Shown: piece by piece, positions 27,283 through 39,872 of the stretch
How the letters are laid out: the number at the start of each line of letters is the position of its first letter
Position numbering within the stretch: the first letter of the stretch is position 1
Source: an uncultured delta proteobacterium
GTDB taxonomy: Bacteria; Desulfobacterota; RBG-13-43-22
DNA: 64,000 nt
Assembly (NCBI GenBank): GCA_963843145.1
Contig: CAWJJC010000020.1
Span: 704,001 to 768,000, forward strand
Direction of reading: 5' to 3'
Translations under genes and position numbers: made by a program
Notes under the pieces: generated by a model
The model's database searches: none
What the model saw: the letters and a program-made list of their open reading frames with translations, nothing else
What the model was told of the DNA's origin: nothing

Positions 27283-28065
27283 ATGATACGCGGACTCTGG
27301 ACGGCAGCCACCGGCATGTCGGCCCAACAATCGAATGTGGCCGTTATCGCCAACAACCTGGCCAATGTTAATACCGCCGGCTTCAAACGAAGCCGGACCA
27401 ATTTCCAGGATTTGATGTACCAAAATATCCGCAACGCCGGTGCTTCGACTTCGGAAGGAAGCCAGTTGCCGGTGGGCATCCAAGTGGGCATGGGCACCAA
27501 GGTCATTTCGGTCAGCAAAAATTTTCAACAGGGGGATTACACCCATACCAACAACCCCCTGGATCTGGCCATTGACGGCCGCGGTTTTTTCAAATTGATC
27601 AGTAACGACCGGGAAGTGTACACCCGGGCCGGGTCCTTCAAAACCGACAAGGATGGATACATCATGGATAGCAATGGGAGCCGGCTCCAGCCTGAATTTG
27701 CCGTGCCCTCCCAAACCACGACCATCACCGTGGGTTCGGGGGGGAAATTGGTCTGCACCGATGCCGGCGGCAAGGAATTGGGGAGTGTCCAGATGCAGGT
27801 CTATGATTTCATCAATCCCGCCGGGCTTCAGGCCATCGGACAGAATTACTTTGTCAATACCGACGGATCCGGAGACCCGGTGGAAGGCAACCCCGGCACG
27901 GACCAATTTGGGTCCATCAGCCAAGGGTTCCTAGAAATGTCCAACGTGGACATCGTCGAGGAAATGGTGACCATGATCATCGCCCAACGGGCCTATGAAA
28001 TCAGCGCCAAGGCGATTCAAACCGGGGATGAAATGCTCCAACAAGTGAATAATCTCAAGCGGTAA
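27283..28065 (+). CDS. flgG: Flagellar distal rod protein FlgG
   Basis: 260 aa, ANNLANVNTAGFK, FQDLMYQ, LEMSNV, AQRAYE. Confidence 0.97.
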   Translation: MIRGLWTAATGMSAQQSNVAVIANNLANVNTAGFKRSRTNFQDLMYQNIRNAGASTSEGSQLPVGIQVGMGTKVISVSKNFQQGDYTHTNNPLDLAIDGRGFFKLISNDREVYTRAGSFKTDKDGYIMDSNGSRLQPEFAVPSQTTTITVGSGGKLVCTDAGGKELGSVQMQVYDFINPAGLQAIGQNYFVNTDGSGDPVEGNPGTDQFGSISQGFLEMSNVDIVEEMVTMIIAQRAYEISAKAIQTGDEMLQQVNNLKR

Positions 28066-28095
28066 GAGATTCTTTTGGATCTTATTAGGCAGACT

Positions 28096-29085
28096 ATGAA
28101 AAATTCATGGCGTACTTTGGGAATCATAATCGGCTCCGGGCTACTGAGCCTGGGGCTTATGGCCGGGGCCGGCAAGGCGGAGTCCGGCCCGCGAATGCTT
28201 TTCAAAAGCCGGGCGACTGTTTCCGGTGAATGGATCCGGGTCGGCGATATAGCGGACCTCAAAGGGCTGCGGAGCGCCTTGACGGCGGAGATCAATCAAT
28301 TGCCGATCAAAGAGGCTCCCGAACCCGGGGAGGCCGCGGTGGTGACCCGCGAGGAGATCGCCTCGGCCCTAGAGACCGTCCCGGAGTGGATTCGGCGGCC
28401 TTGGGAGCTCGCGCCTCAGAAAATCACCGTTATTCGAGAAGGGCGTGTCCTGGGAGCGGAAGAGATCGGTCGAATCATAGCAGGTCATATCAGTAAGAAT
28501 CTGCCTGGGGGAAATCTCCAAGTGGAGGTGCGGGAGGTGCGGAATTTCGAGGAAGTCACCCTGCCGGCGGAAGCCCGATCCTGCAAGGTTTGGATTTCGG
28601 AACCCCTGCGCAAAGGCGGATGGGTTCGAGCCAACCTGGTCTTCTACGGGAAGGGAAAAGAAATAGAACGAATGACCGTGAACGCCCAGGTGGACCTTTA
28701 TCAAAAAGTGGTAGTGGCCGACCGCTACCTGAAGCGGCATCAGGAAATTCAGGCCGAGGACCTCCGGGTCATGCCCGTTAATCTTCAGCAACTGCCCCCG
28801 GATGCGGTCACCGACCCCCAGGAGGTCCTGGGGAAACGAATGATCGTCAACCTCAACGGACGGGAACCCATCCGGGCCTCCCTGCTCGAGGTCCCGCCTC
28901 TGGTTAAAAAGGGGGATGTGGTCAATGTCATCCTGGAAAGAAACAGCCTGCGGATTTCCTGCCTCGGCGAGATTAAGGAGACCGGGCGAAAAGGCGACCG
29001 GGTGAAACTGGTCAATCTCGGAAGCAAGAAAGAATTGTTCGCCCGGGTAGTAGACGCCGGCACCGTCCAACTGGATGTCAATTAA
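28096..29085 (+). CDS. flgA: P-ring assembly chaperone FlgA
   Basis: Signal peptide, SAF domain, PPLVKKGD..G..GDRVKLVN..SKK. Confidence 0.92.
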   Translation: MKNSWRTLGIIIGSGLLSLGLMAGAGKAESGPRMLFKSRATVSGEWIRVGDIADLKGLRSALTAEINQLPIKEAPEPGEAAVVTREEIASALETVPEWIRRPWELAPQKITVIREGRVLGAEEIGRIIAGHISKNLPGGNLQVEVREVRNFEEVTLPAEARSCKVWISEPLRKGGWVRANLVFYGKGKEIERMTVNAQVDLYQKVVVADRYLKRHQEIQAEDLRVMPVNLQQLPPDAVTDPQEVLGKRMIVNLNGREPIRASLLEVPPLVKKGDVVNVILERNSLRISCLGEIKETGRKGDRVKLVNLGSKKELFARVVDAGTVQLDVN

Positions 29086-29097
29086 GGGAACTGAACT

Positions 29098-29787
29098 ATG
29101 ACCCAATCCAAGAAAATAACCTGGGGAATCTTCATCCTGCTATCGATGGCTACCGGGGCCTGCATGCCCTTAACCTCCCACCGCTTGAATGCCACCCCGG
29201 TTGATCCGGCCCCGGCGGAGATCGCCGCCGTCTCGGAGGAGGGCTCCCTCTGGTCGGCCTCGACGGCCGCCAACCTCTTTACGGATTTAAAGGCCTCCCA
29301 CGTCAATGATATCCTCACCATCAGCATCGTGGAAACAGCTTCCGCCTCGAATAACGCCTCGACCAGCCTCGACCGGCAATCCGGATTGAAGGCCGGTTGG
29401 AGCGGGATACTGGAGGCCTTCCAGCAATTAGGCATGATCAAGGAATTGGGGAATTCTCACTCAGTCGATTTCGGGAACAAATTTGACGGCCAGGGAACCA
29501 CCACCAACTCTTCTAAACTGACGGCTTTCATTACCGCCCGAGTGATCAAGGTCCGGCCCAACGGCAATTTGGTCATCCGGGGGGCCAGGGACGTGCGGGT
29601 CAATAACGAGAACCAGTATATCTATCTTCAAGGTGAAGTCCGCCCGGTAGATATCTCCTCCAGCAATGTCGTCCTGTCCACCTACATCGCCGACGCGGTC
29701 ATCGAGCTGAGCGGCTACGGGGTAATCAGCGACAAGCAGCATCCGGGTTTAGTGGCCCGACTCCTGGATTGGATCTGGCCGTTTTAG
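29098..29787 (+). CDS. flgH: L-ring lipoprotein FlgH
   Basis: Lipobox (TGAC), GSLW, LFTD.KA..V.DILTI, PNGNL.I.G, C-terminal WPF. Confidence 0.96.
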   Translation: MTQSKKITWGIFILLSMATGACMPLTSHRLNATPVDPAPAEIAAVSEEGSLWSASTAANLFTDLKASHVNDILTISIVETASASNNASTSLDRQSGLKAGWSGILEAFQQLGMIKELGNSHSVDFGNKFDGQGTTTNSSKLTAFITARVIKVRPNGNLVIRGARDVRVNNENQYIYLQGEVRPVDISSSNVVLSTYIADAVIELSGYGVISDKQHPGLVARLLDWIWPF

Positions 29788-29865
29788 TATGAAAATATAT
29801 TCTGGATAAAGATCAACAGCGATACTGGATAAAAAACAATATTTCCGGAACGAAAGAAACGCTAA

Positions 29866-31107
29866 ATGGAAAACCATGTGAATAGGCCGCAGCCCGTCAA
29901 CCGAACCCCGATTACTCGATTAGGCTTCACCCTCCTCCTGGTCCTGGCCCTGGCCGCCCCGGGCTGGTCGGCCCGCCTGAAAGATATCGCCTCTATCAAG
30001 GGGATCCGCAGTAACCAATTAGTCGGTTACGGTCTGGTGGTGGGGCTGAATGGGACCGGGGACAGTTCGAACAACGTCGACTTCGCCATCCGCTCCACTT
30101 TGAACATGCTGGAGCGTATGGGCGTTCATGTGGAACGGGAGCGTTTCTCCAACATCAAGCTTAAGAACGTAGCCGCGGTCATGGTCACGGCCAACCTCCC
30201 GCCCTTTGCCCGTCTGGGAAGTAAGATCGATGTGGTCATCTCTTCCATTGGAGACGCTAAAAGCCTCCAAGGGGGGACCTTGCTCTTGACCCCTTTGAAA
30301 GGGGTGGACCATCAGGTCTACGCCCTGACCCAGGGTCCGATTACGGTGGGCGGGTATGTGGTTTCGGGGGGGGCTGGCGGAGGGGTGATTAAAAACCATC
30401 CCACGGTGGCGACCATTTCCAAGGGCGCGATTATTGAGCGGGAGGTGCCGGTGCGTCTGGCGGACAAGAAAGAGCTGTTCTTGGCCCTCTATACCTCCGA
30501 TTTCACCACCGCTGAAAAGGTCAAGGAGATCATCAACCGGTTTGCCGGGGCCGAAATGGCCCGATCGCTCGATTCCGGGACCATCCGGATCTCCATTCCG
30601 GAGGGTCACCAATCCAACCCGGCGGATTGGATTGCGGCCATCGAAAGGTTGGAGGTGACCCCCGATGCCCCGGCCAAAGTTGTCGTCAATGAGCGGACCG
30701 GCACCATCGTCATGGGCGAAAATGTGCGAATTTCCACGGTGGCCGTGGCCCACGGCAATCTGAGCATCCAGATCAAAGAAAATTTCAATGTTTCCCAGCC
30801 CCTGCCCTTCGCCCCGGGCGCTCAGCCGGGAGCATCCGGCCGGGGGGTGACGCCCAGCGGCGCCCCACCTCCCGGTGGAGGCACCGGACCGATTGTCGCC
30901 CCCGGGGGAGCCACGGTGGTCACCCCCGACTCGGATGTCTCGGTCAAAGAGGAAGGGAAAAAGTTGATGGTCGTGCCCCAGGGGGCTAATTTGGGCGAAC
31001 TGGTCCAGTCGTTGAATGCCATCGGGGTGACACCCCGGGACCTGATCTCCATCCTGCAGACGATCAAGTCGGCCGGCGCCTTACAGGCGGACCTGGAAAT
31101 AATCTAA
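29866..31107 (+). CDS. flgI: P-ring protein FlgI
   Basis: RLKDI..G.R.NQLVGYGLVVGL.GTGD, NERTGTIV, GALQADLEII. Confidence 0.98.
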   Translation: MENHVNRPQPVNRTPITRLGFTLLLVLALAAPGWSARLKDIASIKGIRSNQLVGYGLVVGLNGTGDSSNNVDFAIRSTLNMLERMGVHVERERFSNIKLKNVAAVMVTANLPPFARLGSKIDVVISSIGDAKSLQGGTLLLTPLKGVDHQVYALTQGPITVGGYVVSGGAGGGVIKNHPTVATISKGAIIEREVPVRLADKKELFLALYTSDFTTAEKVKEIINRFAGAEMARSLDSGTIRISIPEGHQSNPADWIAAIERLEVTPDAPAKVVVNERTGTIVMGENVRISTVAVAHGNLSIQIKENFNVSQPLPFAPGAQPGASGRGVTPSGAPPPGGGTGPIVAPGGATVVTPDSDVSVKEEGKKLMVVPQGANLGELVQSLNAIGVTPRDLISILQTIKSAGALQADLEII

Positions 31108-31129
31108 ATTTTTAAGAAAAAGGGAAATA

Positions 31130-31507
31130 ATGCCGATTAACACCTTAGCCGTGAATCCGCCGCCCCTCCCGCTCCCGATGAAACCGGGCGGCAAAAAGAT
31201 CGATGAAAAGAAGCTGAAGAAGGCCTCCGAAGATTTTGAGGCCCTGTTTATCAATCAGCTTCTGCAATCCATGCGTCGGACGGTCCTGAAATCCAAATTA
31301 CTGGAAGACGCCCCCGGCAAGGAGGTTTATCAATCCCTGTTTGACCGGGAAATCAGTAAGAAAATGGCCCAAAAAGGGGCATTGGGCGTGGGAAAAATCA
31401 TCTACCGGAACGTGCTGGAACACGAAAAGGCTCGAATGGCCCGCCCGGCGAACGGTTTGCAAATGCCTGAAAGCGGAACCTTAACTGGATCGGGAGAAAA
31501 GCCATGA
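31130..31507 (+). CDS. flgJ: FlgJ, rod-binding domain only (no muramidase)
   Basis: LKKASEDFEALF..MRRTV, Y.SLFD; 125 aa. Confidence 0.88.
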   Translation: MPINTLAVNPPPLPLPMKPGGKKIDEKKLKKASEDFEALFINQLLQSMRRTVLKSKLLEDAPGKEVYQSLFDREISKKMAQKGALGVGKIIYRNVLEHEKARMARPANGLQMPESGTLTGSGEKP

Positions 31508-32019
31508 GTCAGGAAACTTTAAGGGGCCAACAAGTACTGGATTGGCTGAAGACCGAAAAACAGGGGTATGAAGCTCTGTTGGCTCTTCTGGACCAGGAGT
31601 GGGAGTGTCTTAAAAGGCGGGATATCACCCAGCTCATTCCTCTGACCCGGGCCAAAGAGAGCCGGATCCTGGAGCTTCATGATCTGGCTCAAAAAATCAG
31701 GCCTTATCTGCCGTTGGAAAAAGCGGCTGACAAATATACGGAAATCGGAGGGCCAGGCGGCGGGTCACAGGCTCAAGCCTCAGACCCCCGGGAAGCCGCT
31801 CTGGCCAAGGTTCAAAAATCCATCCGGAAAATAAAAATGGATATCCAGACCCGGAATGAAAGGAACCGGCGCTATATCGAGGAGAGCTTGAGGGTCATCG
31901 AAGAGTTCTTTTCCCTCCTGGCCCCACCGCCGGATAAACCAGCCGCCTATAGCCCCTTTGAAAACCGGCGGGCCATGAACTCCGGGGGCCCTTCCTCTTT
32001 TATCAGTCGGAGTTTATAG
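31504..32019 (+). CDS. flgN: Export chaperone FlgN
   Basis: Helical, NERNR..I, PAAY; position before flgK. Confidence 0.8.
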   Translation: MSQETLRGQQVLDWLKTEKQGYEALLALLDQEWECLKRRDITQLIPLTRAKESRILELHDLAQKIRPYLPLEKAADKYTEIGGPGGGSQAQASDPREAALAKVQKSIRKIKMDIQTRNERNRRYIEESLRVIEEFFSLLAPPPDKPAAYSPFENRRAMNSGGPSSFISRSL

Positions 32020-32027
32020 GAGTCGTT

Positions 32028-33509
32028 ATGTCGGGTATCTCCTTTGTGCTCAACCTGGCCCGGGGCGCCCTGTCTGCGCAGCAGCAGGGAATCGCTGTGA
32101 CCGGCCATAACATCGCCAATGTCAATACCCCCGGGTACAGCCGCCAAGTGGCTAATTTTGAAAATCTGGCCTCGGATACCACTTCCCCGATCAAGTTGGG
32201 CTACGGGGTGGTGGTGGATTCGGTCTCCCAATACTATGATCGGTTCATTACCCAAAGCCTGCAACAGCAGGAGAGCATCTTACAGGAAACCGCTACCAAG
32301 CAATCCACCCTTTCATACGTCCAGAGTCTGTTCAACGACCAGGCCGGGAATGGCCTCAGCCAGGCGCTGAACGAATTCTGGAACGGCTGGCAAGATCTGG
32401 CCAATAACCCGAGCGGTATTCCGGAGCGCACGGCCCTGCTCCAGAAGGCGGAAGCCCTGACCGAACGGTTTCACACCATCGGCAGTGATCTCACCCGCGT
32501 CCAAAGCGAAGTCGGCAACAGCCTCCAGGCTTCCATCAACGACTTGAATAATTTAACGGGCCAGGTGGCCGATTTGAACCAGAGGATTGTTTCCAGTGAA
32601 TCCAATGGGACGACGGCCAACGATTTGCGGGATCAGCGAAATGTATTGCTGAAAAAAATATCCGGCCTGATCGAGGGCCAGACTTTTGAGTCTAAAGACG
32701 GTTCCGTGACTTTCGTGACTACCAACGGCCAGCTCCTGGTCGACCACGCCCAATCCTGGAAATTGTCTCAAAACGGTTCGTCTATTTATTGGAACGGCGT
32801 CCCCACGGACATTAGTAGCCGCTTACAAGGAGGCAAGATCGGAGGACTTTTGGACCTCCGCGATGAGACGCTTCCCCAATACCTGGCCAACTTGGATGAA
32901 CTGGCGGGGACCCTGATCAAAAATGTTAACGATATCCATGCAGCCGGTTTTAATCTACAAGGGGTGGGCGGGATCAACTTTTTCAATGATTTCCAGACCC
33001 CTCCGAACGTTCCCAACACCGGGAATTACACCGGAGCCGCGGCTTTCATCGACTTGAGCACCGGCGCCAATGGCGTGAAAGACAACCCTGAAAACATCGC
33101 CGCGGCCGAAGCCAATTCACCCGGCCCTCCTCCGGGTCCTCTTCCGGGGGACAACCGCAACGCCCTGAAAATACTCTCCATTCAAACTGATTCCACCTTG
33201 AGTATCAAGAAGTGGACCTACACGGATGGGGGAGCGACTACTGCCTCGGTGACCACGACCTCCACCCTGGATGATTATTATCGCACCCTGGTGGGGGACA
33301 TCGGGGTCCTGACCGCGGGCGCCACGCAGCAATATGACTTTACTCAGACCAAGGTCGATAGCCTGAATGATGTCCGGGCCTCCGTCTCCGGGGTCAATCT
33401 GGATGAAGAGATGACCAAGTTGATGGAGATGCAGAGCGCTTACAAAGCAGCCGCCAAATTGGTAACGGTCTCCGACGAACTTTTTACTACGATACTACAA
33501 ATGACATAA
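32028..33509 (+). CDS. flgK: Hook-associated protein FlgK
   Basis: GHNIANVNTPGYSRQ, NDLRDQR, SGVNLDEE. Confidence 0.97.
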   Translation: MSGISFVLNLARGALSAQQQGIAVTGHNIANVNTPGYSRQVANFENLASDTTSPIKLGYGVVVDSVSQYYDRFITQSLQQQESILQETATKQSTLSYVQSLFNDQAGNGLSQALNEFWNGWQDLANNPSGIPERTALLQKAEALTERFHTIGSDLTRVQSEVGNSLQASINDLNNLTGQVADLNQRIVSSESNGTTANDLRDQRNVLLKKISGLIEGQTFESKDGSVTFVTTNGQLLVDHAQSWKLSQNGSSIYWNGVPTDISSRLQGGKIGGLLDLRDETLPQYLANLDELAGTLIKNVNDIHAAGFNLQGVGGINFFNDFQTPPNVPNTGNYTGAAAFIDLSTGANGVKDNPENIAAAEANSPGPPPGPLPGDNRNALKILSIQTDSTLSIKKWTYTDGGATTASVTTTSTLDDYYRTLVGDIGVLTAGATQQYDFTQTKVDSLNDVRASVSGVNLDEEMTKLMEMQSAYKAAAKLVTVSDELFTTILQMT

Positions 33510-33521
33510 AGGATACCCGCC

Positions 33522-34412
33522 ATGCGTATAGCCACCTCGACCCTTTTCGATAGCCTGGAACGGCGGATTCAGCAGTTGACCGAAGGCCTGAATACAGTCA
33601 ATGAAAAATTGTCGTCCCAAAAGAAGATCAACCGCCCCTCCGATGACCCCTTGGGCGCAGCCTCGGCCATCGGCTACCGGAACCTGTTGTCCCAGGTGGA
33701 TCAGTATGGGCGAAATCTAAATACCGGGAAATCCTGGATGGACTCCAGTGAATCCGCCCTGAGCCAATCGCAGGATGTGGTGACCCGGGCCAAAGAGATT
33801 GCGGTCCAAATGGCCAATGGCGCTCAATCAGCGGCGACCCGCAGCAACATGGCCATAGAGGTGGGCCACCTATTGGACCAGGCCATCTCCCTGGGGAACA
33901 CCCAGGTCGGCGGAAAATATATTTTCGCCGGTTTCCAAACGGGAAAGGCGCCTTTCGCCAAAGTGAATAATGGGACTATCGATACGGCTCAATACAACGG
34001 AGAGGGGAATGACTTTCAGGTAGCCATCGGACAAGGCGAGACCTTGGCCATCGGACGAAACGGCCAGACCGTATTTATGAATTCCACTCTTTTTGACACC
34101 TTGGGCGGTCTGAAGCAGGCCCTGGAGGACAATAATGTTACCGGGATTCAGCAGGCCATGACGGGGTTGGATTCCGCCCTGGATCATTTTAACAATCAAC
34201 TGGCCGACGTGGGGGCCCGGGCCAATCGCCTGGAGACCCGGCAGGGCATTTTGCAGAACATGACTTTGAATTTTACGGAACAGCTTTCCCAAGTCGAGGA
34301 TGCGGATATAGCCAAGATGTCCATTGATTTGGCACAGGTGCAGATGGCCTACCAGGCGACTCTGATGACCACCGCCCAGGTAGGGAAGCTGAGCCTGATC
34401 AATTATATGTAA
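33522..34412 (+). CDS. flgL: Hook-associated protein FlgL
   Basis: INRPSDDP, YIFAGF, VGARANR, YQATL..SLINYM. Confidence 0.95.
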   Translation: MRIATSTLFDSLERRIQQLTEGLNTVNEKLSSQKKINRPSDDPLGAASAIGYRNLLSQVDQYGRNLNTGKSWMDSSESALSQSQDVVTRAKEIAVQMANGAQSAATRSNMAIEVGHLLDQAISLGNTQVGGKYIFAGFQTGKAPFAKVNNGTIDTAQYNGEGNDFQVAIGQGETLAIGRNGQTVFMNSTLFDTLGGLKQALEDNNVTGIQQAMTGLDSALDHFNNQLADVGARANRLETRQGILQNMTLNFTEQLSQVEDADIAKMSIDLAQVQMAYQATLMTTAQVGKLSLINYM

Positions 34413-34476
34413 CCAAATATCCGGCGCCCCGCGCCCAGTGTATTTCATTTAATCGTTTTCGCCAGGGAGGGTGAAA

Positions 34477-34701
34477 ATGCTTATTTTAACGAGGAAAATA
34501 GGGGAAACCATCACCATCGGGGATCGGATCAAAATCGTGGTGGTCGATATTAAGGGCAAACAGGTCCGGTTAGGGGTTGAGGCCCCACAGGAGACCACGA
34601 TTTTTCGGGAAGAAATTTATCAAAAGATCCAGGCGGAGAACCGACTGGCGGCCCAATGGGATTTTTCCCAGTTGGATCAACTGACCGATCGATTAAAATA
34701 A
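34477..34701 (+). CDS. csrA: Translational regulator CsrA
   Basis: MLILTRK.GE.I.IG..VRLG.EAP..REEIY..IQ.EN. Confidence 0.97.
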
Positions 34702-34724
34702 CCTTGTAGACAGGACCTAGGTCA

Positions 34725-35159
34725 TTGCAGATTGAAACCAGCCGTTTTGGTACGATAGTTGTCAAAGAGGAGCAGATCTTCCACCTGCCGGAAGGGATCA
34801 TCGGTTTTCCGGAGTGGACCCGCTATATCCTGATCAACCATAGAGAAGGGTCTCCCTTCCAGTGGTTTCAGTCCATAGAAAACCAGGACTTGGCCTTCGT
34901 TTTGATGGACCCCCTGGACCTGGTTGCGGACTACGATATAGACCTATCTCCCGAAGATTCTCTCCTGCTGCAGATCGATCAACCGGTCGCGGAGATCACG
35001 GCCCTGGTGGTAGTGAATATCTCTAAACAACCGCCATCGGAAATCACGGCTAACCTCCTGGCCCCGGTGGTGATCAATTCCGGAAAAAAAATCGCCAAAC
35101 AGATCATCCTCTATCAGAGCGACTATTCCGTCCGCCACCCGGTCCCCACAAAAAACTGA
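34725..35159 (+). CDS. fliW: Flagellar assembly factor FliW (CsrA antagonist)
   Basis: TSRFG, GIIGFP, WFQS..LAF, TANLLAPVVIN. Confidence 0.95.
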   Translation: MQIETSRFGTIVVKEEQIFHLPEGIIGFPEWTRYILINHREGSPFQWFQSIENQDLAFVLMDPLDLVADYDIDLSPEDSLLLQIDQPVAEITALVVVNISKQPPSEITANLLAPVVINSGKKIAKQIILYQSDYSVRHPVPTKN

Positions 35160-35184
35160 CCAAGAACTGTTGCCTCTCAAAAGA

Positions 35185-35212
35185 AAAAGCCGGCCAAAGC
35201 CGACTTTTTTTG
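35185..35212. terminator. Bidirectional intrinsic terminator between fliW and flgM
   Basis: AAAAAGCCGGC-CAAA-GCCGACTTTTTTT between convergent genes. Confidence 0.8.
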
Positions 35213-35234
35213 GGGAGGGAAGAAAAAGCAGGTA

Positions 35235-35549
35235 CTAGCTATTCAGTTCAACGAGAGACGCCTTCAACATCTTCCCGGCAAGTTCTTCACTGTTCACCTG
35301 GTAGGTTCCGGATTCCACTTTTTTCTTAAGGTCCGCCACTCTATCGGCTCGGGTATCCGGGGCCGAGAGAGCGAGCGCTTCTATCTTCTTAATCATCCTG
35401 AAGGAGGGGGATAAATCCACCCGGTCCCCAATTTGACTTTGTACCCTAGTTTCCGGATTGACCGTGCTCTGATCATTGGTGTTTACCTTGTTCTGCTGAT
35501 TGACATACTGGAGGATCTGAGCCTTTTGGCCGATATCTTGAATTTTCAT
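35235..35549 (-). CDS. flgM: Anti-sigma28 factor FlgM
   Basis: DRVDLS, R.DRVADLKKKVESGTYQV..LAGKM. Confidence 0.93.
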   Translation of the reverse strand: MKIQDIGQKAQILQYVNQQNKVNTNDQSTVNPETRVQSQIGDRVDLSPSFRMIKKIEALALSAPDTRADRVADLKKKVESGTYQVNSEELAGKMLKASLVELNS

Positions 35550-36564: not shown

Positions 36565-37194
36565 TTATCCTTGCTTAAAGGCCATCCCGATCAGGGGATA
36601 GACCACCATTCCTGCTAAAACCGCCGCATCTTCGGCAATTAAATACCGGGCGATGCTGGCATCGAACAAAACGTTGCCGTCCGGTGGGAACTCGTCGTCT
36701 CCGGCCCAGAGGATCAGGCAGACCGGGATCCTGGGGAAAGCCTGAAAACAGATACAGACATCCCCTTCCTCTCTTTCGACCCCGCCCTGTTGAACCCCCA
36801 ATTCGGCCAGGAGCCGAGGCCGGTGGCCGAAAGTCTTGACCAGGGGCTCTTTGGCCCGCTGGACAAAAGCCGAGTAATAGAACTCGCCTGAAGGGATCTC
36901 CCGGAAAGTGATCCATTGCCCGGCCAACGGGATCCCCGGGGCCTTTAGCAGGTAATGGAGGATCAAAACCTGCTCCTGCAGGGAAAGCTCTTTGGCCGGG
37001 TCCGGTCCCTGAACCTGGCCTTCCGGCCAGGCTATGGTAATCGTCTTATCCATAAACTGAAGCTTTAGGCGAGTCCCGTCCGGTCCCTGTTGGCAGGCTG
37101 CCCCGCTGAGGACCGCCGCCTGTTGGGGGTCCTGCTTGGCCCACTCCTCCCGGGCCAGTGCCAGGGCATTCTTATAATCGTCTATTCGGGACAT
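36565..37194 (-). CDS. DUF3786-like protein
   Basis: ILHYL, WITFREIPSG.FY..F, FPRIP..LW.GDDEFP..LFD, EDA. Confidence 0.8.
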   Translation of the reverse strand: MSRIDDYKNALALAREEWAKQDPQQAAVLSGAACQQGPDGTRLKLQFMDKTITIAWPEGQVQGPDPAKELSLQEQVLILHYLLKAPGIPLAGQWITFREIPSGEFYYSAFVQRAKEPLVKTFGHRPRLLAELGVQQGGVEREEGDVCICFQAFPRIPVCLILWAGDDEFPPDGNVLFDASIARYLIAEDAAVLAGMVVYPLIGMAFKQG

Positions 37195-39521
37195 GAAGCG
37201 TCCTTTATCCGGCACAAGGTGCAGAGGGTCTTATCTTTCAAGTCAATAATCCGGTATCCCCTGGCGCAGATCTGGTCACGAATCCGGTCGGCCTCGGTGA
37301 ACTCTTTGCGCTGCCGGGCCTGCTCCCGTTGCTCCAGCATATCCCGCACTTCTAAAGGAAGTTCCCGGTCCGGAAAATCAAAAATTTCCAATACGGTGTT
37401 GGTCTGCTTTAAGACCAAATCGATCTCCAGGAACTCTTCAGGGGTAATCCGCTTTTCAATGAATACCGGATTCAGGGCGCGGATGAGTTTGAAGAGGGCC
37501 GACAGGGCCGCCGCAATATTCAGATCGTCGTCCATGGCCCGCTTAAACCGGGTTTTGAAAAGATAAAGGGCCTCGCCGACCTCCGGATGCTCTTCCTGCC
37601 CCGCTTGCCGGGAATAAAGTTTCTGGACGAATTCATCCAGGCGTTTTAATGTCTTCCGGGACGTCTCCAGGGTTTTAAGGGAAAAATGAAGGGGTTTGCG
37701 GTAGTGAGTAGACAGCAGCCAGTACCGTACTTCCCGACCGCTGTAGCCCTGGTTCAAAAGGTCCCGTAAGGTGATCACATTCCCGCCGGCCGGGGAAATC
37801 TTTTTCCCTTCCACGTAAACCAGATCGCTGTGCAGCCAGTAGTTCACGAATTTCTTGCCGGTGGCCGCCTCGCTGATGGCGATTTCGTTTTCATGATGGG
37901 GGAAGACCAGATCCATCCCGCTGGTATGGATGTCAAAGGTTTCCCCCAAATATTTTAAGGCCATGGCCGAACATTCCACATGCCAGCCCGGACGCACATT
38001 CCCCCACTCGGTAACGAAATAGATCCCTTTCTTGAGTTCCGAAAGGTTGGTGCGCTTCAGCAAAGTGAAATCCCGGGGGTTGTCTTTTTCATATTCATCC
38101 AGGTCTACGGTTTTCCCAAGCTGGATTTTTTTTAAGTCAACCCGGGATAAGTGGCCATAAGGCTTAAAACGGGAGATATCAAAGTAAACCGAGCGGAACT
38201 TTTCATAGGCATACCCTTTTTTCAAGAGTTCCCGGGACAGGGCGATCATGTCCTCCACGTGCTCACTGGCCTTAGGATAATGGGATGCCCGTTTAATCCG
38301 CAAGGTGTCGATATCGCTTAAAAACGCCTGGGTGAAATACCCGGTGAAGGCCTCCAGGGTTTGGTTGGCTTCCTCGGCTCCGCGTATCGTCCGGTCATGA
38401 AGGTCGGTAATATTCATGACATGTTGGACCTCCAACCCCTTAAATTCCAGGTAGCGGCGCAGCAAATCGGCCATGACAAAGCGGCGGCAATTCCCCAGAT
38501 GAATCAAAGCGCTGACTGTGGGACCACAGGAATAAATGGAAACCCGGTTTTCCTTGAGGGGGACAAAATTTTCCTTTTCCCGGCTCAGAGTGTTATAAAA
38601 AACCAGCCCGTTTTTTTCCTTTTCATCGAAGAGCGTGGTGCTCAGATAGCGTTCCCCGCCGTCCGGGCAGATGACCACAATCAGGCCTTTCTTGAGTTGC
38701 TGGGCCTTTTGGAGGGCTACAAATACAGCTCCTCCTGAGCTCATCCCCAGCAGCAGGCCTTCTTCCCTGGCCAGCTTCCGGACCGTTTCAAAGGCCTCTT
38801 CATCCTCCACGTTGACTACTTCGTCCAATATGCTCTTGTCATAGATACCGGGCTTGTATGACTCCTTCATATTTTTCAGGCCCTGGATCTTATGACCCAA
38901 ATAAGGCTCCACGCCGACTATTTTTATGTTCGGGTTATATTCCTTGAGCCGCTTGGTCAGGCCCATCAGGGTTCCGGTGGTCCCCATAGTGGCCACCACC
39001 AGGGTCACCTTGCCCCCGGTCTGCTCCCAGATTTCCCGGCCGGTGCCGTGGTAGTGGGCCATGATGTTGTCCTGGTTATTAAACTGGTCCGGCAAGAAAT
39101 AGCGTTCCGGGTTCTCCCGAGCCATTTGATAGACCTTTTCGATGGCCCCATCGGTGCCCAGGTGAGCCGGCGTCAGGAGGATCTTGGCCCCGTAGGCCCG
39201 GAGGATCTTTTGGCGTTCAATGCTGGCCGATTCGGGCATGGCCAGAAGCAGTGGATACCCCCTGACGGCAGCTACCAGGGCCAGACCGATTCCAGTGTTT
39301 CCCGAGGTGGCTTCAATTATGGTTTTATCCTTAGTCAAGGCGCCGCTTTTTTCCGCACCCTCCACCATGGACAAGGCGACGCGGTCCTTGATCGATCCGC
39401 CAGGATTAAAGGACTCGATCTTAGCCCAGACCGCCGCCTTTTTATTGAGATTAAGTCGATTCAATTTGATCAACGGGGTATGGCCGATGAGGCTGGTTAT
39501 GTCGGGAAAGGCGTGTTTCAT
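37182..39521 (-). CDS. cysS: Fusion of PLP-dependent cysteine synthase (CysM/CysK-like, aa 1-~300) and cysteinyl-tRNA synthetase (aa ~305-779)
   Basis: NPGGSIKDR (PLP lysine), EATSGNTG, GTTGT, DGGERYLS; then CGPTV..HLGN, PGWHVECSAM, FPHHENE, DDDLN, ADRIRD; single uninterrupted frame. Confidence 0.95.
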   Translation of the reverse strand: MKHAFPDITSLIGHTPLIKLNRLNLNKKAAVWAKIESFNPGGSIKDRVALSMVEGAEKSGALTKDKTIIEATSGNTGIGLALVAAVRGYPLLLAMPESASIERQKILRAYGAKILLTPAHLGTDGAIEKVYQMARENPERYFLPDQFNNQDNIMAHYHGTGREIWEQTGGKVTLVVATMGTTGTLMGLTKRLKEYNPNIKIVGVEPYLGHKIQGLKNMKESYKPGIYDKSILDEVVNVEDEEAFETVRKLAREEGLLLGMSSGGAVFVALQKAQQLKKGLIVVICPDGGERYLSTTLFDEKEKNGLVFYNTLSREKENFVPLKENRVSIYSCGPTVSALIHLGNCRRFVMADLLRRYLEFKGLEVQHVMNITDLHDRTIRGAEEANQTLEAFTGYFTQAFLSDIDTLRIKRASHYPKASEHVEDMIALSRELLKKGYAYEKFRSVYFDISRFKPYGHLSRVDLKKIQLGKTVDLDEYEKDNPRDFTLLKRTNLSELKKGIYFVTEWGNVRPGWHVECSAMALKYLGETFDIHTSGMDLVFPHHENEIAISEAATGKKFVNYWLHSDLVYVEGKKISPAGGNVITLRDLLNQGYSGREVRYWLLSTHYRKPLHFSLKTLETSRKTLKRLDEFVQKLYSRQAGQEEHPEVGEALYLFKTRFKRAMDDDLNIAAALSALFKLIRALNPVFIEKRITPEEFLEIDLVLKQTNTVLEIFDFPDRELPLEVRDMLEQREQARQRKEFTEADRIRDQICARGYRIIDLKDKTLCTLCRIKDASCPE

Positions 39522-39524
39522 GGG

Positions 39525-39872
39525 TTATCGCCGCCCAAATCCGGACGGCTTTCTCCTTTTAGGACGATTGATCTTTTCGAACAAGGCAACTTGCTCAACC
39601 AGAGAAAGTTTTACCCGAACCGGTTTCCGGCCGGCCCGGCAGAGGCGGCAGCGGTCCTGGGAACAACCTTGACAGTAATGGCAATCCGGGCATTTTTTTC
39701 GTTTCTTTCCGGTCGGATGACCGGCCGAGGGTCGGATCTCTTCAAAGGGTATTAATCGCTGGCTTTGGCCCGGTCCGGTTATTCCGCTTGTTTTTTCCCT
39801 TAGCGCGCTGCGCGCTGCGCTGAGCGTCTTTTTTTTAACGCCCGGGCTTTTTGTTTTTACCCCGCTGCTCAT
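39525..39872 (-). CDS. Small basic Cys-rich protein, possible Zn/Fe-S binder
   Basis: CPDCHYCQGCSQDRCRLC; GAGGG RBS; stop 3 nt before the fusion start. Confidence 0.65.
   Translation of the reverse strand: MSSGVKTKSPGVKKKTLSAARSALREKTSGITGPGQSQRLIPFEEIRPSAGHPTGKKRKKCPDCHYCQGCSQDRCRLCRAGRKPVRVKLSLVEQVALFEKINRPKRRKPSGFGRR

Follow-up and report, generated by a model that had tools for sequence, protein, structure and literature searches.

The window analysed here, 64,000 nucleotides of a contig from an uncultured delta proteobacterium of the Desulfobacterota (GTDB lineage RBG-13-43-22; assembly GCA_963843145.1, contig CAWJJC010000020.1, positions 704,001–768,000), carries on its minus strand, at 37182–39521, a gene in which a cysteine synthase is fused to a protein resembling cysteinyl-tRNA synthetase (CysRS). 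The gene is a single uninterrupted frame of 779 codons plus stop, running from an ATG at 39521 to a TAG at 37182–37184, and the plus strand across the same interval is closed by many stops. Residues 8–287 (38661–39500) form a PALP domain of the fold-type II pyridoxal 5'-phosphate (PLP) class (Pfam PF00291, E = 2.8e-73). A linker between the Pfam domains (residues 297–306, LFDEKEKNGL; 38604–38633) leads to a full-length CysRS-like module spanning residues 307–763, which is made up of a catalytically degenerate Rossmann and connective-peptide (CP) region with the catalytic fold (residues 319–621, 37659–38567; tRNA-synt_1e, PF01406, E = 6.5e-96) and a stem-contact and anticodon-binding region (residues 626–762, 37236–37646) with matches to DALR_2 (658–685) and CysS_C (719–758). 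Against NCBIfam models the protein scores 417.6 bits for cysS (TIGR00435; cut-off 340; model positions 2–459 of 466) and 385.2 bits for cysKM (TIGR01136; cut-off 344.15). It lies below the CysM equivalog cut-off (TIGR01138; 375.2 versus 394.2 bits), slightly short of the CysK equivalog cut-off and far below that of MshC (TIGR03447; 180.2 versus 485.1 bits).

An earlier prediction made from the letters of this stretch (the original prediction) had proposed one 779-residue frame that joins a cysteine synthase to a CysRS, and the frame, Pfam and NCBIfam results bear this out. The motifs it listed are all found: SIKDR at residues 43–47, CGPTV at 332–336, WHVEC at 513–517, HHENE at 542–546 and EPYLGHKIQGLKNMKESYKPGIYD at 205–228. 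It made no mention of the minus strand, of KISPA in place of KMSKS, of HLGN in place of HIGH or of a separate canonical cysS gene in the same genome. An AlphaFold2 model of the fusion is confident for both halves (predicted local distance difference test, pLDDT, of 88.9; predicted template-modelling score, pTM, of 0.74), with a dip in pLDDT to 68–77 at the linker; it covers the folds and not the coupling between the domains. A complex prediction for residues 1–303 against residues 304–779, made from a 56-row alignment, gave 0.30 against a mark of 0.32 and is counted neither way.

The same architecture recurs across the phylum. Of 401 genomes sampled from the phylum of the window, about 159 carry the fused frame; Desulfocarbo indianensis SCBM (locus L067) is one carrier. 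The 159 comprise 150 listed matches that span practically the full query as a single frame and nine that were inferred from best E-values rather than from match rows (G168, G042, G080, G114, G238, G320, G286, G319 and G041); G071, in which fragments lie at contig ends, was excluded. The protein database searched contains 5.8 billion clustered proteins, and the 120 best matches, which were those examined, are all 759–795 residues long and all contain both Pfam domains. Those with names are annotated as 'cysteine--tRNA ligase' (Deltaproteobacteria, Desulfobacterales or Desulfofervidaceae). An assembly artefact with a stop or frameshift near 38610–38625, against which the original prediction had cautioned, is ruled out by the recurrence of the same single frame in the carriers and in all 120 best matches. 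A fusion of cysteine synthase with CysRS was undescribed in the full-text literature searched; subscription journals and supplementary files lay outside the scope of this search, which is not proof of absence.

The synthase half and the supply of cysteine

Judged by its residues, the synthase half looks fully catalytic. All 38 fusions compared retain the PLP-binding Lys45 of SIKDR (residues 43–47, 39381–39395), the SGNTG sequence of the TSGNTG loop (residues 72–77, 39291–39308), GT[TS]GT of the phosphate loop, S[SA]G close to the pyridine N, and Lys216, and the window protein has every one of them. By what is generally known of CysK, we take the TSGNTG ('Asn') loop to be the one that binds the substrate carboxylate. 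The PLP half is the best-conserved part of the fusion (64.6% identity) and its closest solved structures are cysteine synthases, including that of E. coli CysM (2bhs; 273 bits). The loop at residues 205–228 (38838–38909) was described in the original prediction as short and CysM-like, and this holds because the loop aligns to E. coli CysM without gaps, while insertions are needed against the best CysK-type chain. In this alignment Lys216, a lysine in every one of the 38 fusions, occupies the position of the first Arg of the 'GIRRW' sequence of E. coli CysM; presumably the Arg found at this loop in E. coli CysM and in mycobacterial CysM sets specificity. The 60 best solved matches of the synthase half do not include M. 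tuberculosis CysM.

The fusion is often the only cysteine synthase of its host. At a threshold of E = 1e-80 for the cysKM model it is the sole match in 78 of the 159 carriers, 80 have a further match and in one the fusion is cut by the end of a contig. In five complete single-contig genomes, from five families, the fusion remains the sole cysKM match even at E = 1e-15, and the match lies at the coordinates of the fusion. On these counts the synthase half is the physiologically primary part of the protein. The serine acetyltransferase CysE (TIGR01172, E = 1e-30) has a match in only three of the 78 fusion-only genomes and none in the other 75, as against 75 of the 80 carriers that have a further CysK and 187 of 242 non-carriers. 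None of the five complete fusion-only genomes contains CysE (one has a 44-bit hexapeptide match). Comparative genomics thus points to a fused synthase that is independent of serine acetyltransferase. Since 75 of the 78 fusion-only genomes lack CysE, its substrate, as far as gene content can tell, is most likely O-phosphoserine, an intermediate of serine synthesis, which lends comparative support to the O-phosphoserine substrate entertained in the original prediction.

The genome of the window is itself redundant in synthases, with a separate CysK of 308 residues and two CysE-like genes below the cut-off. The gene check suggested with the original prediction found here a stand-alone cysS and these two sub-threshold CysE-like genes, and neither SepRS nor SepCysS over threshold; the genome encodes one ordinary tRNA-Cys(GCA). 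Synthesis of cysteine on tRNA by way of O-phosphoseryl-tRNA was considered and rejected, as neither SepRS nor SepCysS exceeded the threshold in this genome and the five complete carriers have no SepRS. The two CysE-like genes (L014, 1051–2028 on contig C25; L015, 1042–2043 on contig C2) encode 325 and 333 residues, score 173 and 160 bits against the CysE cut-off of 210 and have long cysteine-containing N-terminal extensions. Across the phylum, CysE-like matches are commonly of this sub-threshold kind (about 1e-45 to 1e-52).

The CysRS-like half: losses, retained sites and alternative roles

The CysRS-like half has lost the class-I signature through which ATP is used. KMSKS is replaced by KISPA (residues 574–578, 37788–37802), and KM[SA]KS occurs in none of the 120 closest homologues; within the family of the window protein (75–93% overall identity) the position of the second Lys is occupied by Pro, Gln, Arg, Trp or Tyr. 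In place of HIGH the protein reads HLGN (residues 341–344, 38490–38501), which matches the HIGN of active-looking relatives, but the fourth position is unconstrained and takes 11 different residues in the 120 homologues (E, Q, N, V, P, D, T, I, H, L and A). Two of 37 diverse fusions have the second Lys of KMSKS, and 20 have the first His of HIGH. We also compared these sequences at the 73 columns whose invariance reaches 90% or more among 92 active-looking CysRS; 61 of these columns belong to the catalytic half, the remaining 12 to the tRNA half. Mean retention in the fusions is 0.72 in the catalytic half versus 0.93 in the tRNA half, and the window protein is changed at 11 of the 61 and at one of the 12. 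The same asymmetry appears across 36 pairs of genomes, in which the fused catalytic region evolves faster than the canonical one: it is 52.2% identical in the fused copies versus 64.2% in the canonical ones, and the whole CysRS-like part is less identical than its canonical counterpart in 35 of the 36, whereas the anticodon-binding regions have diverged equally (33.5% versus 34.2%). Two rows entered as canonical (can_L019 and can_L021) are wrong-strand ORFs (open reading frames) of high-GC loci and were left out of the residue, identity and retention tallies. Taken at the level of sequence, the charging half is probably catalytically dead. The original prediction had itself named an inactive domain as evidence against it, and KISPA, the lack of KMSKS in all 120 homologues and the 11 changes of 61 make this the probable state of the protein.

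A canonical enzyme is present alongside the fused one. The separate cysS of the same genome encodes 492 residues with CHIGHARS and KMSKS, lies between ispD/ispF and a dehydrogenase gene, and scores 560 bits for the CysRS family versus 420 for the fused copy; the fused CysRS part is 36% identical to it. A second CysRS-type gene is found in 154 of the 159 carriers, of which 152 have at least two CysRS-family matches and two (G041 and G319) were resolved as having a canonical cysS and a fusion with a CysRS half so decayed that it scores 126–141 bits. The five remaining exceptions are three genomes of 62–79% completeness and two fragmented ones (G158 and G362) with genus or family relatives that have both genes. 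In adequately assembled carriers of the phylum the fused copy is never the sole CysRS and, with a canonical cysS beside it in this genome and in almost every other carrier, it is probably not the housekeeping enzyme. Thirteen carriers have three CysRS-family matches, six of them (G024, G065, G101, G165, G195 and G225) from one family and seven others; the third match may be the CysRS* of Desulfobacterales, which is without the anticodon domain.

These observations bear on the idea with which the original prediction began, namely that both halves are active and that cysteine made by the first is charged onto tRNA-Cys by the second, possibly by channelling. Such an enzyme would amount to a second, dedicated route of charging. 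The idea agrees with the 417 bits that the protein reaches on the cysS equivalog model (cut-off 340) and with the four zinc ligands, the counterparts of W205 and T68 of E. coli and the anticodon residues that the window protein contains. HLGN, too, resembles the HIGN of active-looking stand-alone CysRS, and relatives outside the phylum described below (a Nanobdellota fusion that is the only cysS match of its genome, and adjacent PALP and HIGN-type cysS genes in several lineages) also count in its favour. However, KM[SA]KS is missing from all 120 homologues, with Pro, Gln, Arg, Trp or Tyr at its second Lys in the family, the catalytic half is changed at 11 of 61 invariant columns, a canonical cysS coexists here and in nearly all carriers while the synthase half is often the sole one, and several lineages without zinc ligands still retain the domain. 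A hand-over of cysteine to tRNA charging within the same protein is consequently unsupported, and we regard it as quite unlikely for the gene of the window.

What the fusions have largely kept are residues equivalent to the recognition sites of CysRS. By alignment to E. coli CysRS (1li5), Cys332 of CGPTV (residues 332–336, 38514–38528) corresponds to the zinc ligand C28, WHVEC (residues 513–517, 37971–37985) to W205 and the ligand C209, and HHENE (residues 542–546, 37884–37898) to the ligands H234 and E238. The window protein has all four (C332, C517, H542 and E546), in addition to the W205 and T68 equivalents. When 37 diverse fusions were set beside 12 canonical enzymes from the phylum, C28 proved to be kept in 32 of the fusions, C209 in 32, H234 in 36 and E238 in 21, and five of the 37 lineages have lost at least two ligands. 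The anticodon contacts of E. coli CysRS, given as R427, W432, D436 and R439 in an excerpt of PMC13449415, map in the 1li5 alignment to R736, F741, D745 and R748 of the window protein. At these four sites Arg or Lys, an aromatic residue, Asp and Arg are present in 37 of 37 fusions, the lineages without zinc ligands included, and the same residue classes are found in 56 of 56 rows of a larger alignment. The retained module might serve structure or docking only (as an aid to solubility, oligomerization or attachment to tRNA or the translation apparatus) and neither sense nor regulate, since the domain persists in five lineages without zinc ligands and with most catalytic invariants gone (retention 0.49) and since both halves are modelled confidently (pLDDT 88.9, pTM 0.74). 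Such a role leaves unexplained the 37 of 37 retention of the four anticodon-contact sites and a rate of divergence in the tRNA half that does not exceed that of real synthetases; we consider it unlikely.

The losses form a graded series across lineages, as would be expected if the CysRS half were a functionless relic on its way to being lost. Against this stand its full length in about 159 genomes from many families of the phylum, a mean pairwise identity of 46.6%, its share of the columns that never vary in the 56-sequence alignment (29 of 92, from R346 to D760) and, contig-edge cuts aside, the lack of truncated forms among the matches listed. Decay towards loss is thus highly improbable.

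Several of the lost sites carry a new, consistent residue. W488, G509 and Q549 are retained in 0–3% of the fusions and are replaced by residues conserved in the family (Leu or Phe at 488 in 36 of 37, V509 in 28 and I549 in 29), as is T419 by Ser (33 of 37). The CP-domain loop at residues 469–499 (38025–38117), with the pattern GKTVDL..YEKDNP.DFTLLKR..L.ELK.G, is family-specific and conserved, and the Trp of the canonical DFxLWK has become Leu. Its first ten residues (469–478, 38088–38117; GKTVDLDEYE) are the most conserved stretch of the CysRS-like domain and the only internal segment with a pLDDT below 50, a combination in the sequence and the model that suggests a conserved flexible loop which becomes ordered on binding a ligand.

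Such replacements, which are not noise, together with the conserved CP loop and the loss of the ATP motifs from a protein that retains its amino-acid pocket and tRNA recognition, would also suit a module that has acquired an ATP-independent reaction on Cys-tRNA-Cys or on zinc-bound cysteine or sulfide. Transfer of cysteine to another acceptor, deacylation and delivery of sulfur to the PLP site are possible reactions. A parallel would be the cyclodipeptide synthases, which keep the class-I fold and the aminoacyl pocket and have lost HIGH and KMSKS. Proteins resembling aminoacyl-tRNA synthetases are known in non-ribosomal chemistry, as set out in an excerpt of PMC2922099. We nevertheless hold a new reaction to be quite improbable: 21 diverse loci contain no conserved neighbouring genes for an acceptor or a pathway, the zinc pocket is lost in five of 37 fusions, no candidate catalytic residue was identified, and the invariant SGNTG loop, from what we assume of CysK, argues for a free amino acid and not an aminoacyl-tRNA at the PLP site. 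A specific candidate, cysteine persulfide synthase (CPERS) activity, is unlikely, as only one of the four PLP-binding lysines, as given in an excerpt of PMC10655014, is present (R377, R380, K574 and P577 in the window protein).

In the family of the window protein only, the usual ending of CysRS (D-T-x-x-G-T-x-W-R) is replaced by a cysteine-rich tail (residues 760–779, DLKDKTLCTLC...CPE; 37185–37244), with low pLDDT at 773–779. Its cysteines could form a small metal site with the upstream Cys751; one family member (P0023) is missing the second Cys of the tail.

Origin, a putative sensing role and related systems

The ancestry of the charging half can be followed outside the phylum. We computed a FastTree phylogeny of 96 rows (all stand-alone matches up to P0160 and each third thereafter), from which, as it is midpoint-rooted and has local supports only, nothing beyond grouping was taken. 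The nearest active-looking CysRS are stand-alone enzymes of the HIGN type with an intact KMSKS, and the canonical HIGH-type enzymes of the phylum lie elsewhere in the tree. Clustering with the active HIGN-type enzymes are fusions that appear to be intact: cluster P0123, with HIGN and KMSKS and 47% identity to the window protein, and a frame of 804 residues with HVGN and KMSKS (L061, 3001–5295) from a metagenome-assembled genome (MAG) of a Nanobdellota archaeon, which is the only cysS match in that 1.4-Mb genome. Elsewhere, MAGs of Woesearchaeota, Moranbacteria, Bdellovibrionales and Bathyarchaeia have a PALP gene next to a separate HIGN-type cysS that is the sole one there (loci L070–L077 and L082, with members of the candidate phyla radiation and of DPANN among the hosts). 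From these adjacent pairs and the intact archaeal fusion, a plausible path leads from adjacency to fusion and then, when the cell came to have a second CysRS, to the loss of catalysis, in an order that we infer. The make-and-charge idea may hold in this Nanobdellota archaeon, where the apparently intact fusion is the sole CysRS, and not in the gene of the window.

For the latter, a built-in sensor is more likely than a second charging enzyme. We propose a CysE-independent cysteine synthase in which a fossil CysRS serves as a built-in sensor, a statement to which, taken whole, we assign roughly even chances; the part concerning a degenerate synthetase is much firmer than the part concerning sensing. 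In this proposal, the CysM-type PLP synthase would condense O-phosphoserine with sulfide, with no need for a serine acetyltransferase. The C-terminal two thirds would be a fossil of a HIGN-type enzyme whose gene was at first a neighbour of the synthase gene and was then fused to it. With a separate canonical CysRS presumably charging tRNA-Cys in the phylum, the fused copy would have been freed from selection on its ATP and adenylate machinery. The fossil would have kept anticodon recognition of tRNA-Cys and, in most lineages including that of the window, the zinc pocket for cysteine, and would read the state of cysteine, of tRNA-Cys or of both in order to tune the attached synthase. In the CysE/CysK system, CysE is the committed upstream step at which feedback by cysteine usually acts. 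Because a pathway without CysE has no such upstream step, the synthase itself would be the control point. More specifically, and only tentatively, uncharged tRNA-Cys with its GCA anticodon might switch the O-phosphoserine sulfhydrylase on, and cysteine bound in the zinc pocket might switch it off, in a large part of the phylum. If true, this would be a single-polypeptide bacterial counterpart of the logic of GCN2 and HisZ and the first biosynthetic enzyme known to be under direct control by its cognate tRNA.

Several points weigh against the sensor proposal. What suggests a sensor is the pattern of conservation. Zinc ligands are lost in five of 37 fusions, one of which (L044, from genome G112) belongs to a genome with the fusion as its sole synthase, so that zinc-based sensing of cysteine cannot be the universal function. 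The window protein itself keeps the zinc ligands, H-x-G-N, the first Lys of KMSKS and an above-cut-off cysS score, and it may conceivably retain some residual aminoacylation. The reference set of 92 CysRS was selected by HIGH-like and KMSKS motifs, so that those motif columns are invariant by construction, and the cross-tabulations of CysRS, cysKM and CysE were transcribed by hand and include related genomes that are not independent. An all-against-all comparison of ORFs from the 21 diverse loci yielded no conserved neighbouring gene that points to a partner. Finally, we know of no fold-type II PLP enzyme that is controlled by tRNA.

If the reading of a degenerate synthetase with a sensing role is right, the database name 'cysteine--tRNA ligase' is misleading, as the charging half is probably dead and the half that is not mentioned would be the sole cysteine synthase in about half of the carriers, without serine acetyltransferase. 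Cysteine biosynthesis would then have to be reconstructed differently for a large group of anaerobes that includes many sulfate reducers and syntrophs, and the few synthetase fossils recruited to control amino-acid synthesis would gain a class-I member that recognizes tRNA. The graded series from adjacent genes through an intact fusion and the loss of the ATP motifs to the loss of the zinc ligands would constitute a natural experiment on the change from enzyme to sensor.

Upstream of the fusion on the same strand lie a glmU-like gene, glmS and a cysteine-rich basic ORF of 115 residues (39525–39872, minus strand) with a CPDCHYCQGCSQDRCRLC cluster, which ends 3 nt before the start codon of the fusion; this order is shared with another genus of the family. 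The ORF has no Pfam match. At the corresponding position, a different genus of the family (L029) has a counterpart of 106 residues with 58% identity over 53 residues. Downstream is a DUF3786 gene (36565–37215, minus strand; E = 4.9e-56), the listed GTG start of which overlaps the end of the fusion by 34 nt; its position next to the fusion is not conserved, even within the family of the window. A conserved operon partner was sought across the 21 diverse loci and discarded, as only antisense shadows of the fusion gene recurred. No Rfam match to a regulatory RNA was found at gathering thresholds in the whole window. A flagellar block at 27283–35549 contains FlgG-, FlgA-, FlgH-, FlgI-, FlgK/FlgL- and FliW-like genes and FlgM (FlgM assigned by Pfam, the others by eye), and DUF6178, DUF3467 and a RidA/L-PSP family gene lie on the other side of the fusion.

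The two halves have separate counterparts among known enzymes. The synthase half shares the fold-type II PLP architecture and the short CysM-type loop with CysM and the O-phosphoserine-type synthases (E. coli CysM, Mycobacterium tuberculosis CysM and the archaeal O-phosphoserine sulfhydrylase, OPSS), but scores below the CysM equivalog cut-off (375 versus 394) and has Lys216 where E. coli CysM has Arg. The charging half resembles canonical CysRS (E. coli 1li5 and 1u0b, and the cysS of the same genome) in domain order, zinc ligands and anticodon-binding residues and differs in the loss of KMSKS and other catalytic invariants. The Nanobdellota fusion and cluster P0123 have the same two-domain order, but HVGN or HIGN and KMSKS are retained there. 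MshC and the CysRS* of Desulfobacterales are likewise derived from CysRS and have non-standard roles, according to an excerpt of PMC9437257. MshC, however, is an ATP-dependent ligase, on the model of which the window protein scores 180 against a cut-off of 485, and CysRS*, as portrayed in the same excerpt, is without the anticodon-binding domain that the window protein keeps and is linked to SelC*/SelB*.

The closest parallels in function, should the sensor proposal hold, are two proteins derived from histidyl-tRNA synthetase (HisRS). Histidine inhibits the ATP-phosphoribosyltransferase HisG by way of its regulatory subunit HisZ, a non-catalytic paralog of HisRS (excerpt of PMC9437257). Like HisZ, which is described there as derived from an aminoacyl-tRNA synthetase, incapable of aminoacylation, bound to the enzyme that makes its own amino acid and a mediator of feedback, the window protein stems from the cognate synthetase, has lost its catalytic motifs and is tied to a biosynthetic enzyme. 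HisZ differs in being a separate subunit of class II and, in the same excerpt, in having no anticodon-binding domain, whereas the window protein is covalently fused, belongs to class I and keeps the residues for anticodon recognition; allostery here would be by analogy. The HisRS-like domain of GCN2, as outlined in an excerpt of PMC4335047, is catalytically dead, binds uncharged tRNA and controls the enzyme to which it is attached. GCN2 is eukaryotic, has a kinase as its output and binds many tRNAs, whereas the module of the window protein should be specific for tRNA-Cys and its output would be a biosynthetic PLP enzyme.

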